Assembly: GCA_963715985.1 (NCBI GenBank)
Contig: CAVQSP010000013.1
Coordinates: 288,001-352,000 of the forward strand
Direction of reading: 5' to 3'
DNA from: an uncultured Thermoleophilia bacterium
GTDB lineage: Bacteria > Actinomycetota > Thermoleophilia > UBA2241
Length of the DNA stretch: 64,000 nucleotides
Below, piece by piece: positions 15,308 through 26,396 of the stretch (positions within the stretch are counted from its first letter, which is position 1; each line of letters begins with the position of its first letter). Under the pieces are notes generated by a model that had not been told where the DNA came from, did no database searches, and saw only the letters and a program-made list of their open reading frames with translations. Position numbers and translations under genes: made by a program.

Positions 15308-16589
15308 TCAGACGCGCTCGTCGAACCAGAGCACCGGTGGGAACGGTCGCAGGCAGTGCGGGTGCCAGTTGGCCTGGCAGTAGCAGCCCACGCCGAGCAT
15401 GGCCACGATGTCGCCCTCCTCGAGGGGCGGCAGCGCGTAGTCCTCAGCGAAGAGGTCGGGACCCTCGTTGATGTGGCTGGAGAGGGTGTAGCGGGCCGTG
15501 CGCGGAGCATCAGCCGCACGGCACAGCACGGTCTCGATGGCCTCGCGGTAGACGAACCACAGGTGTACGAGGTTCCAGCCGCAGGTGAGGCCGGCGAAGA
15601 CAGCGCTGCCGTCGCCGGCCAGGCTGCGGTCCTCGACCGTGACCACCTCGGCGAGCGCCACGGCCGCGTTCTTGACGAGCGACTCGCCGGGCTCGCAGGC
15701 GATCGTCACGCCCAGCGGGCCGAACTGCTCGGCGAGGATGCCTGCATACGCGTCCAGGTCGAGCGGCCGCTGTCCCTGCTGCATCACGGCGGCGAGGCCA
15801 CCGCCGGCATTGACCTCGCGGATGGGGCAGCCGGCGTCCATGGCGCGCCGCGCCATGGACGGCCACCGCCGCGGCCGCCTCGCGAAACGCCGGCAGATCG
15901 TCGTCGAGCAGGTGGTGGCTCACGTGGAAGTGGATGGTGTCCACCGTCAGGTCGTGTTCGCGCGCGACGGCGAGGGCCTCGTCCAGCCGCTCCGGGTAGA
16001 TGCCGAACTTGGTCGGCTTGTCGCCGCTGTAGTAGCTGATGCCGCCGTCGGGGTGGACGGCGCTTCGGCGGGGGTTCACGCGCAGCCCGATCGTGCCGCC
16101 GCGGTCCCGCCGCCCGTATCGGCGGATCTGGCTGATGAGGTCCAGGTTGATGTGCACGCCGTGAGCGAGGATGACGTCGAGGTCCTGGTCGCTCACGTTG
16201 GTGCCGGTGTAGCTGATCTCGGAGGCCGGCCAGCCCTGCTCCAGGCCGTACTGCACCTCGCCGGGGGAGCAGACGTCGAGGCCGACGAACTCCGGGGTGC
16301 CGGGCATGCCGATGCCGTGGACGCGCGCCAGCGCGCGGGGCTCGCGCTGCGCCTTGACGGCCCAGCGCACCTTCCAGGGCAGTCCGGTGCGTGCCATCGC
16401 GCCCTGCAGGGCGCGTACGTTCTCCTCCATGTGCGTGAGGTCGTACACGAACAGCGGCGTGCCCTGCTCGCGCGCCAGCTGTTCCGCGTCACGCCCGGCG
16501 ATCAGAAGTCGCCCATCCCTGACGTCGAGGCCCGGCCGCCGCCACCAGTCACACGGCTGGACTGTGACGGTCTGCGGGTCGTCGGACAT
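15308..16589 (-). CDS. PLP fold-III decarboxylase, diaminopimelate decarboxylase-like (frameshift near 15855)
   Basis: [40 protein letters not shown] motifs. Confidence 0.8.
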
Positions 16590-16798
16590 GGGGTGACTCC
16601 TTTCTCGCGACGCCGGCGCGCTCTGCCGGCCGCGCACGAGTCTCTCGCGTGGCGGGTCGCGGGCAACCGGCGGCCGCGACCGGGATACGGCCGCGCGGGT
16701 TTCATGGTGCCTCGAGGCGGGGCAGAATCGCGGGCGACGGCGCCGCCTTGCGGCGCGACACGCTCCACACTGCGAGCCCACGAACGGGGAGGCCCGGC

Positions 16799-18502: not shown

Positions 18503-18671
18503 GCCGCAAGGGTGACGGGCGCGGCGGCGCGGCGCAAGCCGCCGCACCGCGCCGCCGCGCCTCGGCCTCACGCCCGCACCGCGCTCCGGGACCGGCGTCC
18601 GGTGGCGTCGCGCCCGCCCGGTGTGATTACCTTGGCCCACTCCGTGGACTTCGCCCAGAGGGAGGCAGGGC

Positions 18672-20141
18672 GTGAAACGCAATCTGTTCGCCGGCCAGCG
18701 CCGCAGCGGCGGTATCGGCCTTTCAATGTTCACCGACGACGAGATCCACATGATCCACCGTGGCACGCTCGTCGTCCTCGAGCGCACCGGCATCTGGGTC
18801 GAGCTCGACGAGGCGCTGGACATCTTCAGCGACGGCGGCTGCAAGGTCGACCGCGAGACGCACATCGTCAAGATCCCCCCGCACGTGGTGGAGGACGCCG
18901 TCGCCAGCGCCCCCGAGTCCATCGCGCTGTGTGGCCGCGACCCGAGGAACGACATCCTCATCGAGGCGGGGCGCGTGGGCTTCAGCAACTTCGGCGAGGG
19001 CATCAAGGTCATCGACCCCACCAGCGGCGAGCTGCGCGACTCCACGAAGAAGGACCTCGGCGACATCGCCCGGCTGGTCGACGCCCTGCCGGACATCGAC
19101 GTCTTCGAGATGGCCGTGGTCTCCGGCGACAAGCCCCCGGAGACGTTCTCGCTGCACAACCACGAGGCGGCCATCGTCAATCAGACGAAGCCCATCTCCG
19201 GCGGGGCGCAGGACGGCCGCGCCGTGCACACTACGGTGGAGATGCTGGCCGCCGTGCAGGGCAGCGAGGACGCCGTGCGCGAGCGGCCGATGATGATCAT
19301 GGGCACCTGCCCCGTGAGCCCGCTCAAGCTGGTCAAGGACTTCTGCGAGATCATCATCGAGGCGGCGCGCGTGGGCCTGCCCTCCTGCGTGCTCAGTATG
19401 GCCATGGCCGGCGGCTCGTCGCCGGTCACGCTGGCCGGCACGCTGGTGACGCACAACGCCGAGGTGCTCGCCGGCATCGTGCTCGGCCAGCTCACCGAGC
19501 GCGGCAGCAAGGTGCTCTACGGCTCGTCCACCACGGCTATGGACCTGCGGCTGGTCACTGCCTCCGTCGGCTCGCCGGAGTGCGCCATGATCAGCGCCGG
19601 TGCGGCCCAGCTCGCCCGACAGTACCGCCTTCCGAGTTACATCGCGGGGATGTAGGGCGACGGCAAGACCAGTGACGTGCAGACCGGTCACGAGAAGACC
19701 CTCACGGCTCTGATGGCGGCGTTGGCAGGGACCAACCTCATCTACGGGTCGGGAATGATCGAGTCGGGCGTCACCTTCGATTTCGCGCAACTGGTCATCG
19801 ACGACGAGATCGCGCGCATGGTCAAGCAGGTGGTCGGCGGCGTGCGCGTGGACGACGAGTCGCTGGCGGTGGACGACATCGCGAGCGTGGGCTCGTTCGG
19901 CGACTTCCTCAGTCTGGACGCGACGATGGCGCACATGCGCGAGCAGTCGCAGCCGCGGCTCATGGACCGGCGCGTGCGCGAGGAGTGGGAGGAGGGCGGC
20001 AGCCTGGGCATGTACGACAAGGCCCTGGCCAAGGCCCGCGACCTGCTCGAGAACCACCACCCGGAGCCGCTGCCCGACGACGTGCGGCAGCGGGTCCGCG
20101 ACATCGTGGAGCGCGAGGACAGGGCGGCCGGCAGGGCCTGA
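18672..20141 (+). CDS. mttB: Trimethylamine:corrinoid methyltransferase MttB with in-frame amber codon (predicted pyrrolysine, codon 328)
   Basis: ORFs 18672-19655 and 19677-20141 are in frame, separated only by TAG 19653-19655; context LPSYIAGM-*-GDGKTSDVQTGHEKT; also SPL, PVTLAGTLVTHNAEVLAG, GSSTT, GSPE. Confidence 0.92.
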
Positions 20142-20215
20142 CGGGCGTCCCCGGTCCGGACGCGACGCGGGCGGGGCGGCTCTCCCGGCCGCCGCCCGCG
20201 GCGCGTTCCGCCTCC

Positions 20216-21296
20216 TCATTCCCTCTCGTCGATCCAGCCGGTGACGACGAATCTGTCGCCGGGCACGATGTCCCTGCCGCTCCATGAAGATCCATGAAGG
20301 CGTGGCAGGTGAGGCCGGCGTACGCGCCCGACCCCTTCGCCACGGCGTACTGGAAGTGCTCGAGCGCGGCCCGTGCCACGCACACCGTCGAACGCGGCGC
20401 ACTCCCACGCGCCGTCTGCGTTCGTCATGGGTCCAGGAGCCGCCGTAGTCGATACTGCCGTCGGGCGCGGGGGGCCGCCCTCCTCGACGACCTCTGCTTC
20501 CAGGTGGCCGTTCACGCGCGGGTCCGACTGGTCGAGGTTCCAAGCCCATGAGTAGGTCGTCGTACCCCGCGCGGCTGTCGGTCGTGATGCCGACGACGGG
20601 CGTCCAGACCCGGGGGCGTCGTCCCCGGCCCGGGGGCCGGCGGCACCGGGCTCCCGTCGGTAGTCTCGATCCACCCGGCACCACTCGATCTGGATGTCGG
20701 GCGTGAAGCCCTGGCCGGCCTCCACGAACCAGCCGGTTCATCGCGGCCTTGAGGCCGGCGTAGCCGCCGGTCCCCTGTCACCGCGAGACGCACGTGGTGC
20801 TCGTCGCCGCCGGCGGCGATGCCCCCCGTCCATCTGCCGACCCAGGTGCCGCCCTCGTTGGTGATCCGGCACGGTGCCCCAGAGCGTCGCGCTCATGTCG
20901 GTCTGCCGCTGGTCCATGTTGACGATGACGTCGTACCGCCCGCTCAGGCGCGGGTCGGAGCTCTCCTGCCGGAACACCCACTCGGCGCGGCGCGTCTGCA
21001 TCGTGTCCCGTCGACCATCTTCTCGCTCTGGTAGGGTCCGTGATAGTCGACCAGGGCTTGCGTGAAGACGAACGGCAGCATGCCGCGGAACTCGCTAACC
21101 GCTACCGGGACCTGCGCTGCGGCCGGTACCTGTAACGCGGGCGCAGATTCGACCGCCGTCGGCCCTGGCGCCGCCGTCGATGCCGCCTGCGAGTTCGCCC
21201 CGTCGCAGGCCGCCACACCGGCCGCACCCGCGACCGTGAGCAGCAGGCACAGTGCAGAGCACGCACGCTCGACCAGAGACTCTCGTGTGACATCAT
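20216..21296 (-). pseudogene. Multiply frameshifted lipoprotein with two related beta-rich domains
   Basis: SD GGAGG + ATG 21296; lipobox VAAC; repeated SDPRL/VxG and G(T/S)G.YAGL motifs across several frames. Confidence 0.5.
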
Positions 21297-21399
21297 CCGT
21301 CCTCCCTCTGTCGGTGGGGATGCTCTCTCGCCCACGCAGACAGACCGGGCAAGGGCCGTTGTTTCTTCGCGTGCCAGTCGTTGGAGCCCCGAGAGGACG

Positions 21400-22886
21400 C
21401 GGGGAGGACGTGGGGTCCGGCGCTCGCGGCGTGAGGTGCTTCCGGCGACGCTGTCGCCCGAGTAGGTCCTGCAACGAGTCCGCGATCCGCGAGAAGCTCC
21501 TGCGCCGAGGCGCCGCCGGCGATCGTCAGCAGGACACCGTCCTTGACCGCCCAGAGGTGCGGCGTGGAGGACGTGGTGGCCACGACGATGCTCGCCGTGG
21601 CGCCGGCGAAGGCGCCCGATGTGATGGGGCGCTCGGTGCGCACCAAGGCGGTCCAGGCGGGATTGTAGGAGTCAACCGGGTCTTCGGTCGCCGCGTAGTA
21701 CGGGTCGGCGAGGGTGCGGGTGGAGACGGTGAGGGCGTCGAACCCGTGCGTGTACTGCAGCTCGAAGATATGGCGCGGCCCTGGACGAGGTGGTTGGTGG
21801 TCAGCGCCCGTGGGCGCGACGGCGAGCGTGCGGCCAGGCGAAAGCCGGCCGGGGCACGAAGCCGGGCACGAGCGGCGTCATCGCCGGTGAAGCCCGCCCG
21901 CCTCCTCGAGAGGAGATGCGCCGGAAGCCCGCGTCGCTTGCGCCGGAGCGTCTCGCCCCGCCGGCGCCCCACCGTGAAGGCGCCGGCTGGCAGCGGCTCG
22001 TTGTAACGGACGTCCAGGTAGTGCAGGTCGGCGATGAGCACCCCTGCAGTCGATCTCATGGAAGCGGACGGGGAGCCACGTCCGTTTGTCGATCGGTCAC
22101 CTCGTACACCGGCCAGTCCACGGAGGTGGCCGGAGCTGGCGAGCTCGGCGACCTGTCCCCTTTCGTGCAGGTCACGGTCCAGGCCGGCCGGCCGTCCATC
22201 ATCGGCGTCGTCGAGGGTGAAGGCGCCGGACGCCTGCATCGCGCGCCCGGAGGTCCCGAGGTCGACAGCCGGTCAGCGGGTCGGCGACCGCGTCCGGCGG
22301 TCCGAGCGGGACGTTCCGCGTCACGGTGAGCCCGCGTCCCGGACGATAGTGCCGGAGGACGCCGGCTCGAGGCGTCGTAGGCCACGGACGTCGGTCGCCG
22401 TAGCCGTCGCCGGGGCGATAGCCGTCGCGCGGCGGGTCCGCCCGAGCTGCGTCAGGCGGTAGCTGCCGTCGGCGCTCTGCAGCATGCGGTACCGGAAGTA
22501 GTCGTAGTGGAAGCCGACCAGAGATGCGGTTCCAGTCGAGGCGCCTTGAGCGTGACGTCCGCCTGCCAGGTGCGGCCGGACGAGGAGGCGGCGGGCGTCC
22601 GCCTGACGACGTCGGCGGCGTCGACCGTCTGGGGCCCGACGGGTCTGCGGCAGGCCGAAGAGGACGGCCGCCGCGGCGGCGGCGGCGAGCGCGGCCGCGA
22701 CAACCGCGATGCGCAGGGGCGGCGCGGTCAGGGCGGCGCGCAGGCGGCCGAGGAACGTCCGGCGCGCGATCACGTCGGCGCCGCCGCGGCGATCGCGGCG
22801 CGGATCGCTCCCAGTAGTCCGGCGCGTGCTCCGGTCCGCGAGGACTCGAGCTGCTGGCCGAGCTCCCTGTCGCGGATCTCCTCCAT
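21400..22886 (-). pseudogene. Multiply frameshifted anti-sigma-type membrane protein (LolA/RseB-like); 3' end approximate
   Basis: TGATG coupling to ECF sigma stop; MEEIRDRELG..., TM helix, C-terminal LTIAGGASAQELLA spread over frames. Confidence 0.5.
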
Positions 22887-23455
22887 CACTCCCCCTCGAC
22901 GTAGAGAGATGGCCTCAGGTGGCGGCGCAGAGACGCGCGAGCCGCGGACAGGCGCGAGGCCAGGGTCCCCGTGGGCACGCCGAGGATGTCGGCGGTCGTC
23001 GCGTAGTCGAAGCCCTCGCGGTCGACGAGCAGGACGGCCAGGCGCTGCTCGGGCGGCAGGGCCGCGAGCGCCTCCGCGAGCGCCTCGTGGACGGCGACCG
23101 TCTCGGCCGGGTCCAGATCGCAGTCGGCGGGCTCGGGCATCTGCTCAGGCGACAGCGGGACAAGCCGGCCGGATCTCGCGACGGCATCGCAGCAGGCGCG
23201 ATAGGTGATGCGGCACAGCCAGGTGCCCAGCGACGCCTCACCGCGAAAGCCGGCGAGCGAGCGGTACACCTTGAGTGCGACGTCCTGCATGACGTCGTCC
23301 ATCAGCTGGCGGTCGCCGAGAACGTGATAGGCGACGATGCGGAGACGGCGGTCGTAGTGGCGCATGACGTCGATGAACGCCGCGTCGTCGCCGGCCGCGG
23401 CCGCGGCGAGGACGCCCTGATCGATCTCCTCAGTCCTCTGCGCCCAGGCAGACAC
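22886..23455 (-). CDS. ECF RNA polymerase sigma factor
   Basis: DDVMQDV, FRGEASLGTWLCRI, LPPEQRLAVLL...GTLASRLSAAR. Confidence 0.9.
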   Translation of the reverse strand: MSAWAQRTEEIDQGVLAAAAAGDDAAFIDVMRHYDRRLRIVAYHVLGDRQLMDDVMQDVALKVYRSLAGFRGEASLGTWLCRITYRACCDAVARSGRLVPLSPEQMPEPADCDLDPAETVAVHEALAEALAALPPEQRLAVLLVDREGFDYATTADILGVPTGTLASRLSAARASLRRHLRPSLYVEGE

Positions 23456-23708
23456 GCCCGCCCCTCCCTCCGGACGCTCGACCCGCTCAGGCGTGAGCGT
23501 ACCCCTACCGGACAGGCGCCGGCCCGTTGCGGCCCACATGACACGGGGCTGCGCGTCGGCTACGGCTGTCACTGTGAGCATGAAGCCGCTCCCTCCTCTC
23601 GGTCAGATAGACCGCAGAAGGGCCCGGTTTCTTCGGTGGGAGGGAGGGATCCCCGGTGGGTGCCGGTGGACGGCGTCTCGCGGGACCGTGCTCAGGCGCG
23701 ATTCGGTT

Positions 23709-24392
23709 TCAGCGCGCTGGGGAGGGCAGCACCCAGTCCTTGGCGGCGGCCAGATGCACGCGCAGCGTGTACTTCGCGCCGCCGTCGGTGACGCCGTAGG
23801 CGAAGTCGCCGTCGGCCGTGCCCTGAGCCATGGCGGCGTGCGTCCACGGGTTCTGCGGCCAGACGGGCACGCCGGGCTGCAGCCCCACGGCTCCACCCGC
23901 CGCCACGTCGGCCTCCGCGGGCGGCGTGCCGCCGTGCGCGGCCGCCCAAAGGTCCACGTACTGCCCGACGAGGGCGAGGCCGGCCTTGGCGGAAGCGTCG
24001 CGCTCATCCTTGAGCCACGCCGGAACGCCGCCGCTCACCTTGTACGAGCCTTTGGAGAGGTGGCCGACCAGGGTGTAGCCGCTCAGGTCGGCCTTCACGC
24101 GGTAGGTGTACGTGCCCTTGGACGTCCCCGGCGCCATCGTGCCGCCTGTCCACGGGTTGCCCGGCCACACCGGCGCCTCCAAGGCGCCGCCCTTCTTGAC
24201 GTCCGCCACAGCCGGGTACACGAACCCGTCCTTCTCGGCCTGTGTGTTGATGTAGCCCTGCAGCAGCAGGATGTTCATCTGCACCTGCTTGTCCACGAAG
24301 TTCTCGGCGGCGCTCGCGGCGCCCGGCAGCGCGGCGAGGGCGAGCACGGCGAGGGCGACGAGCAGGATGGGGGTGAGGACGCGTCTGGACAT
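23709..24392 (-). CDS. Secreted protein with two pilin-head-like WPxNPWT domains
   Basis: Sec signal ending ASA; two internal repeats VWPGNPWT and VWPQNPWT. Confidence 0.7.
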   Translation of the reverse strand: MSRRVLTPILLVALAVLALAALPGAASAAENFVDKQVQMNILLLQGYINTQAEKDGFVYPAVADVKKGGALEAPVWPGNPWTGGTMAPGTSKGTYTYRVKADLSGYTLVGHLSKGSYKVSGGVPAWLKDERDASAKAGLALVGQYVDLWAAAHGGTPPAEADVAAGGAVGLQPGVPVWPQNPWTHAAMAQGTADGDFAYGVTDGGAKYTLRVHLAAAKDWVLPSPAR

Positions 24393-24471
24393 GAGAGCTC
24401 CCAGGTCGGTTTGTGCTGTGTGGTGCAAGTGTGGGGGCGGCGAGCGCGGCCGGTCAACCGGGCGCCGCGCC

Positions 24472-24480
24472 TGCTAGGAT
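24472..24480 (+). promoter_or_regulatory. Extended -10 promoter candidate for mtbB
   Basis: TGcTAGGAT 34 nt upstream of ATG 24515; SD GAGGGG. Confidence 0.5.
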
Positions 24481-24514
24481 GAGGCCGGAGCTGCCGCGAC
24501 GAGAGGGGACGACG

Positions 24515-25900
24515 ATGGAGACCAGGGTGCCCACCCGCATGGGCGACGGGTTCATGGTCGAGATGACGCGCAGCGAGCTGCGCGCCGACATCGAAGCGGC
24601 CACGCAGGAGGCGGCGCGCAAGGCAAAGACGCCGCCGCTCGCCGCCGCCGAGCAGGAGCACCTGCTGGACATCTACGCCTCGCGGGCCGCCTTCACCGCC
24701 GTGGACATCGGCGACCAGGTGGTGCTGAGCTGCGACGGCGGCGGCAGCAAGATGACCGGCACCGACATCCAGGACCTGCTGGAGAGCGAGCAGCGGCTGG
24801 GCCAGGACATCCTCGAGCTCTGGCACATCGAGTACAGCTACAAGGCCATCAAGACGATCCTGCCGTTCCAGCAGCAGGTGATGCAGAACGCCCAGCTGAT
24901 GCTGACGGCGCCCATCCAGTACGGGGCGCAGCCCAATCTCGCCTTCTACAGCCGGCCGGACGGCCCGTGCCCCAACTGGTTCGAACTGCTGCCGCGCGGC
25001 GACATCGCCGGGTCACGCGCGGCCGTGGAAGAAGCCATGGAATACGCGACGCAGGACTTCGTGTACGTCGCCGACGGCATGCTCGAGGCCGGCGCCGACG
25101 GCGTGGACTTCGACACCACCGGCGGCGCCGGCGACGCCGATCTCTTCAGCACGCTGCGTGCCGTGCGCCACGTGCGCGAGCGGTACCCGGAGGCCGGCAT
25201 CGAATTGGGCATGGCCGGCGAGTTCGTCATCGGCGTGCACGGCGAGCTCACCTGGGAGGGCACCCGGCTCGCCGGCATGTGGCCGCGGCAGCAGCTCGAG
25301 GTGGCGCAGGACGCCGGCGTCACCATCTTCGGGCCGGCGGTCAACATCCGCAGCGGGCGCTCGTGCTGCTGGAACACGGCCTACTCGCTCACGGTCATCA
25401 AGCCGTGCATGGAGGTGGCTCGCATCCCCGTCCACGTCAACGTGGGGGAGGGCGTGTGCGGCGTCCCCGTCAACGGGTATCCGGGGGAGGACGCCGTCTC
25501 GCGGGCGGCCAAGGCACACGTCGACATCCTGCGCTGCGACGGCTTGTAGGTGGGGTCGGGTGACTCCAGAGGCATGGACGTCACTCACGCGCTCGCCGCG
25601 GGCATGGGCGGCATGCGCACGGCCGGAGACCTGGTCGCGCGCCTGCAGATGTCACGCGGGATGCGGCTCGAGGAGGCGAAGCGGACCGTGGCCGGCAAGC
25701 TCGGCTGCACGGTCCGCGACCTCAGCGACAGCTACGCCATGGAGCAGCTGCGCGGCGAGCTGGGCCTGGGGCGGATCCTCGACCACTCCAATCTGCACCC
25801 CGGCAAGCCGAACGCGATGAGCGCCAAGTTCCGCATCGCCGAGCTGCTCGGCCTGCGGATCAACTCGGTGGAGCGCTTTCGGGAGCTGGCGGGGCTGTAG
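24515..25900 (+). CDS. mtbB: Dimethylamine:corrinoid methyltransferase MtbB with in-frame amber codon (predicted pyrrolysine, codon 345)
   Basis: RMGDG, YSYKAIK, GADGVDFDTTG, GMAGE, FGPAVN; TAG 25547-25549 in context CDGL-*-VGSGD followed by GMGGMRTAGDLVAR in the same frame. Confidence 0.92.
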
Positions 25901-26396
25901 CGCTCGCCGCCGCGGCGAGCGCCGAGCGCCGCATGATCGCGCCCACGGCCACGGCGGCGACGCCGATGGGCACGAGCAGGATGCCGGTGAGGAGCGTCAC
26001 GTAGAGGCCGATGCCGGGCCGGTACATCTTGACCATGGAGTCCGCGGCGGAGATCGCCTCCGCGGCGAAGACGACGCCGGCCACGACCACCCCGGCGGCG
26101 AGCGCCATGGTGACGCGCCGCGGTCCAAGGATCAGGAGCAGGGCGGCGATCGCCATCGCTCCCAGCGCCGCCCCGAGCACCGGCGGCCCCCACTGGGTCT
26201 GCAGCACGCCCACCACGCCGGCGGGCTTGGAGAGGCTGAAGTTGACGTACTGGGCCGTGTACTCGTTGGCCCAGGGCAGGAAGACGGCCACGAGGCCCGC
26301 CGCCCCGCCCGCCATGATGAGCACGGCGTAGCCGATCCAGTCGCCTCTCGCGAAGCGGTGTCTGCGGAAGCGGGGTGTGCGCATCGTCCTTGTCAT
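25860..26396 (-). CDS. Membrane protein (4 TM)
   Basis: VFLPW...GIGLYV pattern; convergent 41-nt overlap with mtbB. Confidence 0.6.
   Translation of the reverse strand: MTRTMRTPRFRRHRFARGDWIGYAVLIMAGGAAGLVAVFLPWANEYTAQYVNFSLSKPAGVVGVLQTQWGPPVLGAALGAMAIAALLLILGPRRVTMALAAGVVVAGVVFAAEAISAADSMVKMYRPGIGLYVTLLTGILLVPIGVAAVAVGAIMRRSALAAAASATAPPAPESAPPS

Follow-up and report, generated by a model that had tools for sequence, protein, structure and literature searches.

A trimethylamine methyltransferase gene with a predicted pyrrolysine codon in a high-GC Thermoleophilia genome, and a conserved hairpin downstream of its UAG

Reviews still assign pyrrolysine (Pyl, O in one-letter code) to methanogens, some Firmicutes and Deltaproteobacteria. 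The solved enzyme most similar to the one considered here is the trimethylamine (TMA) methyltransferase MttB of Methanosarcina barkeri (7xcl, 7xcm, 7xcn), in which a UAG codon specifies Pyl334. Here we describe an mttB gene with an in-frame TAG located on a stretch of 64,000 nucleotides from an uncultured Thermoleophilia bacterium (assembly GCA_963715985.1, contig CAVQSP010000013.1, referred to below as C13; the stretch, C13:288001-352000, is hereafter called the window). The gene resembles that of M. barkeri in being full-length, in having a UAG at the position of Pyl334 and in the flanking residues, S-Y-(I/V)-A-G-x-O-x-D-x-K. It differs in that the host is a bacterium of about 70% GC, that PylS is split into PylSn and PylSc, that no adjacent mttC or mttP was found, and that the downstream methyl acceptor is presumably not coenzyme M. 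The assembly comprises 4.35 Mb in 22 contigs, with a completeness of 88.8 and a contamination of 7.29.

Among bacteria, Ellenbogen et al. (2023, mSystems, PMC10805028) reported that metagenome-assembled genomes (MAGs) of Actinobacteriota from Stordalen Mire express Pyl-encoding mttB and mtbB, which were recognised by amber truncation. These MAGs share with the window genome the phylum, the gene pair and the wetland origin, and the Pyl trait is thus not new for Actinomycetota; the pyl machinery, the copy numbers, the distribution over lineages and an RNA element are not described in the main passages of that article, supplements aside. It was the only relevant report on pyrrolysine in Thermoleophilia or Actinomycetota in the literature searched, which did not extend to subscription journals and supplements, and the phylum goes unmentioned as a Pyl user in a Chem Rev review of 2024 and in Mukai 2017. 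A first-pass annotation of the window, made from its letters only, had presented the trait as one mostly described in methanogens, some Firmicutes and Deltaproteobacteria; its occurrence in the present lineage is supported, but the phylum had already been covered by Ellenbogen et al. The second bacterial system for comparison is Peptococcaceae strain DCMF, for which the published account (PMC6778437) gives 82 mttB genes and 96 methylamine methyltransferases, 23 with Pyl, together with pylT, pylSc, pylSn and pylBCD. On that account DCMF and the present genome are alike in a large expansion of the MttB superfamily, about 23 Pyl-bearing genes and a split PylS, and differ in that DCMF is a Firmicute of 46% GC, whereas the present genome is that of an actinobacterium of 70% GC with a heme-copper oxidase.

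The features of the mttB gene are as follows.

18672..20141, plus strand: mttB, Pyl-type trimethylamine:corrinoid methyltransferase gene, 489 codons plus a TGA stop, identified by Pfam, NCBIfam and structure-chain alignment.
19653..19655, plus strand: in-frame TAG, codon 328, predicted pyrrolysine, aligned with X334 of 7xcl_A and conserved in homologues.
18660..18665, plus strand: Shine-Dalgarno-like GGGAGG, 6 nt 5' of the GTG start, read from the sequence.

The mttB frame runs from the GTG start at 18672 to the TGA at 20139-20141, and the TAG at 19653-19655 is its sole internal stop, preceded by LPSYIAGM and followed by GDGKTSDVQTGHEKT. The first-pass annotation had quoted these flanking peptides and had seen two MttB halves in one frame with only this TAG between them, and both observations are confirmed. 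It had also called the 489 amino acids obtained by readthrough a normal full length, and indeed homology to M. barkeri MttB spans the whole protein: the best solved relative, 7xcm/7xcl, scores 397 bits (E 8e-118) and aligns query residues 2-485 with chain residues 3-491. Because this alignment begins at residue 2 of the query, it supports the start at GTG 18672. Under translation table 11 the gene is called as two open reading frames (ORFs), 18672-19655 and 19677-20141, the second with a GTG start. It should be noted, however, that the single frame is not a chance arrangement, since one Pfam MTTB match (PF06253, 314 bits, residues 18-484 of the readthrough protein) crosses the TAG, the cut-off of the NCBIfam equivalog TIGR02369 ([trimethylamine--corrinoid protein] Co-methyltransferase) is passed with 692.6 bits against 525, the GC content at third codon positions (GC3) is 0.95 both upstream and downstream of the TAG (window as a whole: about 70% GC), and the TAG itself is conserved.

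The alignment to Methanosarcina MttB that the first-pass annotation had proposed as a check places codon 328 on the Pyl334 column of M. barkeri 7xcl_A, where the residue is entered as X within S-Y-V-A-G-S-X-S-D-A-K; the non-Pyl glycine betaine enzyme MtgB (2qne, 9yce) has Leu in this column. A homologue search restricted to one genome per species gave 79 loci, and tblastn of these gave 122 hits that span the TAG column. TAG is present at the column in all 72 hits of 43.8-87.9% identity, which come from other genomes and contain exactly one stop each, and sense codons are present in all 50 hits of at most 41.4% identity. Conservation of the residues immediately 3' of the TAG (GDxK...) indicates that they are translated. 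Contigs of one wetland metagenome run also cover the site, and among 40 of the 159 variant rows none concerns 19653-19655, which is a weak indication. Contigs from two RNA libraries overlie 19620-19805 at about 96-97% identity, differing at 4-8 positions; they are weak evidence of expression, possibly deriving from relatives or from DNA carry-over, and only small shares of the sequence (0.06-0.20) were covered by the RNA runs.

A search of the genome for the pyl genes, likewise suggested at the outset, recovered pylT with a CUA anticodon; pylSn, pylSc, pylC and pylD, all of which exceed their cut-offs; and pylB, split over two frames. They form a cluster on the window's own contig at 551.9-560.1 kb, about 245 kb from mttB, in the order pylB-pylC-pylD-pylT, followed by pylSn, a corrinoid protein gene and, on the opposite strand, pylSc. 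PylSc (TIGR02367, 316 bits against a cut-off of 178) and PylSn (TIGR03912, 124.6 bits against 51) are encoded by separate genes on opposite strands about 3 kb apart, and PylC and PylD score 317.9 bits (cut-off 248) and 199 bits (cut-off 150). PylSc matches the bacterial enzyme best (3dsq/2zni, 314 bits); the archaeal type without an N-terminal domain (250 bits) and the Methanosarcina type (189 bits) score lower. The tRNA-Pyl identified by ARAGORN at C13:555126-555198 is the sole CUA tRNA among the 53 tRNAs of the genome. Its cloverleaf fold resembles that of tRNAPyl: the spacer is a single base, the D loop has 5 nt and the variable loop is very short. The corrinoid protein gene between pylSn and pylSc lies at C13:558286-559041, and a B12-binding/radical-SAM-like ORF (C13:557242-558675, minus strand) lies there as well. 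The same contig also carries a tRNA-Sec (anticodon UCA, C13:139538-139635), so that this bacterium probably employs the 21st amino acid in addition to the 22nd.

The aligned TAG, its conservation and the pyl machinery together argue for the view, already taken in the first-pass annotation, that this organism decodes UAG as Pyl. Judging from sequence, we put at roughly 0.86 the probability of this reading as a whole, in which the window gene is an intact mttB and a bacterial system of the split type decodes its codon 328, UAG, as pyrrolysine. In the mechanism that we propose, PylBCD would make pyrrolysine from lysine, PylSc, aided by PylSn, would charge the single tRNA with the CUA anticodon, and the Pyl-tRNA would compete with release factor 1 (RF1) at UAG. 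In the resulting full-length MttB, Pyl would hold a methylamine, most likely TMA, one methyl group of which would pass to a corrinoid protein encoded elsewhere; a methyltransferase of the MT2 type would then move it from the corrinoid into C1 metabolism, and proteins of the RamA/RACo type would keep the corrinoid reduced. The genome has 21 matches to B12-binding_2, none of them in the window and the nearest ones on the contig at C13:558325 and C13:582565; genes of the URO-D/MT2 type adjoin a corrinoid gene elsewhere in the genome, two genes for RACo/RamA-type activators are present, and acetyl-CoA synthase is encoded at C11:144815-145280 (acsB, frame-broken). A heme-copper oxidase subunit I (536 bits) is encoded on the window's contig at C13:213624-214964, 73 kb from the window. 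The Pyl bacteria known so far are strict anaerobes, and a Pyl user with an oxygen reductase would be unusual.

Several observations weigh against this reading. The genome encodes RF1 (479.7 bits, cut-off 423), and TAG terminates 471 of the 2435 called genes (0.193), so that many ordinary genes would be read through if Pyl-tRNA were abundant; moreover, no back-up stops lying nearer after TAG than after TGA were found in this genome (median distance 61 versus 56 codons, p = 0.58). PylB is split over two frames (303.8 + 125.8 bits) by a one-base break near C13:552669 which, if real, would leave the strain unable to make Pyl. Genes for a corrinoid protein, a permease or an MT2 enzyme were found neither in the window nor beside the orthologues at the syntenic loci, and not all of the approximately ten Pyl-type MttB paralogues of this genome, with their mutual identities of 50-64%, may need to use TMA. 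Adjacency of mttC is usual in the Pyl-type MttB family, but does not define it.

The first of these points bears on how UAG is read in this genome. Since RF1 is present and TAG still terminates about 19% of the genes, UAG decoding is ambiguous, as is known from other bacteria with Pyl, rather than fully reassigned. Kivenson and colleagues are said to have described, in 2025, a genome-wide UAG-to-Pyl code in archaea; a code of that kind, in which UAG is dropped as a stop, is not what we find here, given RF1 and the 471 TAG-terminated genes. Stop usage was obtained with a crude GC3-based gene caller, and relatives were sampled as stretches of 400 kb. In a PylS-positive congener 68 of 187 genes (0.364) end in TAG, and in two PylS-negative members of the class the figures are 77 of 230 (0.335) and 72 of 212 (0.340); a general depletion of TAG in Pyl users is thus unsupported. 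In this single genome, with 19% versus 34-36% in the three relatives, Pyl load may be connected with an avoidance of TAG. We also observed 98 TAG-terminated ORFs that continue in frame with coding-like GC3 for at least 60 codons; besides the mtx genes, most of these extensions are probably adjacent genes in the same frame, and further Pyl proteins could be hidden among them.

A second gene of the Pyl type lies downstream of mttB.

24515..25900, plus strand: mtbB, Pyl-type dimethylamine:corrinoid methyltransferase gene, start taken as ATG 24515, terminal TAG at 25898-25900.
25547..25549, plus strand: in-frame TAG of mtbB, predicted pyrrolysine; 11 mtbB loci in the genome and 62 of 63 homologous hits have TAG in this column.
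20142..24514, no strand: spacer of about 4.4 kb between mttB and mtbB, with an extracytoplasmic function (ECF) sigma factor gene (22886-23581, minus strand) and ORFs.

MtbB matches Pfam PF09505 (Dimeth_Pyl) with 504.9 bits and TIGR02368 with 375.9 bits (cut-off 369.1), and the ECF sigma factor is called from matches to Pfam Sigma70_r2 and r4_2. Linkage of mttB and mtbB is observed in at least eight orthologous loci. In the most compact of them (L031), which does not have the insert, the two genes are 26 nt apart, and the insert of about 4.4 kb is common to the window and the loci L036, L041 and L043 of three other MAGs. The terminator of mtbB is itself a TAG, with the next in-frame stop 12 codons further on (25934-25936), and Pyl-tRNA could extend MtbB past it. 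Throughout the genome, TAG occupies the Pyl column in 10 mttB loci, 11 mtbB loci and two of eight mtmB matches (about 23 loci), and there are 46 further hits to non-Pyl members of the MttB family. The genome has 18 matches to TIGR02369, the most in the sample of its family.

TMA is the most likely substrate of the window MttB, judging from its family assignment. The alternative that fares best, although we regard it as unlikely, accepts that the enzyme depends on Pyl and holds that its orthologue group demethylates another methylated amine, as one of a diversified set of Pyl-type MttB proteins. The ten TAG-type mttB loci of this genome share only 50-64% identity, and in a quick IQ-TREE tree, which is unrooted and from which no donor or direction of transfer is drawn, they fall into separate clades with their own Thermoleophilia orthologues; the group of the window gene has its own motif, LPSYIAG-O-GD(S/G)KLSDV, and neither mttC nor a permease gene adjoins it, in contrast to canonical mttBC operons. 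The cut-off of the TMA equivalog is, however, passed by a wide margin (692.6 versus 525 bits), the protein is a full-length homologue of the TMA enzyme of M. barkeri, and the gene is linked to an mtbB of the dimethylamine type, as a stepwise breakdown of TMA would need.

Much less probable is that the Pyl system is dead, i.e. that the break in pylB is real and that the TAG genes are truncated or rely on Pyl or a precursor from outside. What suggests this is that pylB lies in two frames and that frame breaks also affect 7 of the 21 loci with mttB or mtbB of the TAG type. However, 19 of 26 sampled genomes of the genus have an intact pylB that passes the cut-off, and where the gene is split the break falls at different profile positions in different assemblies (194, 214/216, 227/228 and 240-252). 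Besides the seven loci mentioned, unrelated genes of the assembly are broken, namely acsB and a decarboxylase-like gene in the window. Because the position of the break varies between assemblies and unrelated genes are also broken, the frame break in pylB is probably an assembly indel, and the window copies of mttB and mtbB contain no frame break, their GC3 being 0.94-0.95 before as well as after the TAG. The decarboxylase-like gene (15308-16781 of the window, minus strand; Orn/Arg-decarboxylase-like) shifts frame near 15850, and is one of many cases of one-base breaks. That the gene is a pseudogene or split gene, its UAG being a plain stop and its halves of 327 and 154 residues being made separately, as the two ORFs called under table 11 (the second with a GTG start) and the presence of RF1 might suggest, is hardly credible, since a nonsense mutation would not persist at one column in 72 of 72 homologues from three phyla, the seven codons between the TAG and GTG 19677 are conserved as protein and hence translated, the residue lacking from both halves corresponds to the catalytic one of the solved enzyme, and the genome encodes a dedicated CUA tRNA together with its synthetase.

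The first-pass annotation took the organism to be probably actinobacterial and proposed placement by marker genes; RpoB, the closest orthologous loci and synteny place it in the Actinomycetota and, more precisely, in the class Thermoleophilia. The 13 closest orthologous loci are 77-88% identical, have a GC content of 0.67-0.71, and come from MAGs of many projects titled Thermoleophilia, Actinomycetota or Actinomycetes, and gene order is common to the window and the closest loci over more than 10 kb. Compared at full length, RpoB shares 88.9-91.6% identity with the RpoB proteins of five of those MAGs; one of six loci (L180) was dropped from this comparison for a spurious ORF, and one genome (G314) gave no rpoB match. 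Of 55 genomes sampled from the family of this organism 51 encode PylSc, as do 9 of 55 sampled from a second family; none of 190 genomes from ten other families of the class does. In the family, 37 of 41 genomes contain a TIGR02369 match over the cut-off, and among the 150 matches listed 148 have exactly one TAG and two have none. Near-identical mttB sequence is present in 14 wetland metagenome runs. An entire family of Thermoleophilia from soils and wetlands would thus have Pyl as a conserved trait, together with a complete machinery and some two dozen Pyl genes per genome. Such abundant actinobacteria are likely rivals of methylotrophic methanogens for the methylamines of wetlands, and standard gene callers split all such Pyl genes in two.

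The one element that goes beyond the published work that we found is a hairpin in the coding region downstream of the UAG. Within mttB, two features were considered.

19718..19738, plus strand: hairpin, +66 to +86 nt from the UAG, 7 pairs GG.GUUGG / CCAACCU with loop CAGGGA, covering codons Ala350-Leu356.
19653..19752, plus strand: match to Rfam PYLIS_3 (RF02510), 60.8 bits against a gathering score of 38.

In an alignment of 72 sequences (52 distinct), 95.6% of the cells at the hairpin pairs are paired, versus 18-58% when the partners are slid, and double changes occur at four of the seven pairs, a level reached by none of 500 shuffles, although such shuffles overstate significance for related sequences. 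Codon usage was surveyed in 81 TAG-type mttB genes (10 of this genome and 71 others, with a GC content of the fetched loci of 0.38-0.72). The Leu and Asn codons in the hairpin are TTG/AAC in 66 and TTG/AAT in 8 of them; in 4, Leu is encoded by CTG or CTT and paired with Ser AGC, so that the change is compensated, and one has the broken combination CTG/AAC. The third base of the Ala codon covaries with that of the Asn codon, being G-C, with A-U in five distinct rows, and in the quick tree A-U appears in at least four separate clades and C-G in at least two. In the window gene the only TTG among 42 Leu codons is codon 351 and the only GCA among 48 Ala codons is codon 352, both inside the hairpin; across Pyl-type mttB genes of high GC content, TTG accounts for 4.6% of the Leu codons and GCA for 3.9% of the Ala codons. 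All seven pairs are formed in 71 of the 81 TAG-type genes versus none of 95 scorable non-Pyl homologues, three of which have six pairs, and the non-Pyl set includes genes with an identical AALAGAN motif as well as a variant of this genome with Leu in place of Pyl (C3:63040). In the 4.35-Mb genome a 14-nt motif of the hairpin is found at nine sites, each of them 69 nt downstream of the TAG in a TAG-type mttB. The hairpin is thus conserved at synonymous sites and specific to TAG-type bacterial mttB. We found no published description of it, again in literature not extending to subscription journals and supplements.

The PYLIS elements (RF01982 of mtmB, RF02509 of mtbB and RF02510 of mttB) are likewise RNA features located 3' of the Pyl UAG and within the coding region. 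The mttB hairpin lies outside the consensus structure of RF02510 and is specific to bacterial TAG-type mttB; judging from the Rfam consensus, it would be absent in archaea. PYLIS_3 itself was rejected as a Pyl insertion structure: four of the few pairs of the model are non-canonical in the window, and its match reflects conserved coding sequence instead. Folding does not support it either: the fold of the 120 nt from the TAG has a z of +0.98, with 169 of 200 shuffles at least as good, and for 36 actinobacterial sequences the covariation term of RNAalifold was only -0.62, one of 16 pairs being compensated. Of the structure predicted by RNAalifold, the small hairpin alone withstood closer tests. 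Theil Have et al. (2013, PMC3639795) state, in the part of their article that concerns mttB, that it shows no common structure. A corresponding helix is present in the mtbB gene of the window.

25619..25638, plus strand: distal helix of mtbB, positions 73-92 of the Rfam PYLIS_2 model (RF02509), conserved in TAG-type mtbB.

The PYLIS_2 match scores 57.4 bits against a gathering score of 36, its distal helix having no non-canonical marks and helix 1 having seven. Most of 62 TAG-type mtbB genes form six or seven of the seven pairs of the distal helix, which displays covariation at synonymous sites and contains an invariant GGA codon.

Tentatively, and with more doubt than confidence, we suggest that the mttB hairpin and the mtbB distal helix may be a cis element that favours Pyl insertion over RF1 termination or protects the mRNA during a pause of the ribosome at the UAG. 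The conservation across phyla at 38-72% GC, the compensatory changes, the restriction to TAG genes and the loss of pairing together with the change from Pyl to Leu are consistent with this view; at about 65 nt from the UAG, the hairpin is too far away to touch the decoding ribosome, which argues against a direct role. It is conceivable that the hairpin is a DNA palindrome bound by a protein, but the G-U pairs at its outer positions favour RNA. If the cis-element view is true, the element would be the bacterial "PYLIS" sought by Zhang and Gladyshev (2007, PMC1976440), whose article, in the part dealing with bacterial Pyl genes, reports a search for such an element that found none, and it would help to explain how full-length Pyl enzymes are made in bacteria in which UAG is a common stop. 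A hairpin specific to TAG genes also offers a handle on how particular UAGs are read as an amino acid in such bacteria.

Two minor observations concern the methyltransferase paralogues. Six of the eight MtmB-family matches (PF05369) in the genome have no in-frame stop and are non-Pyl homologues, among them C11:185068-186420, C11:311481-312830, C3:48518-49861, C14:103360-104718 and C14:620367-621708. The gene at C3:63040-64494 is a member of the Pyl-type clade (TIGR02369, 655 bits; 55% identical to the window gene) in which CTC (Leu) replaces the TAG; it adjoins two TAG-type copies, the hairpin pairing is gone (CTG at the position of Leu351), and it looks like a recent loss of Pyl. A second case resembling this change from Pyl to Leu is present in another genome (G324:C191:759-2159).

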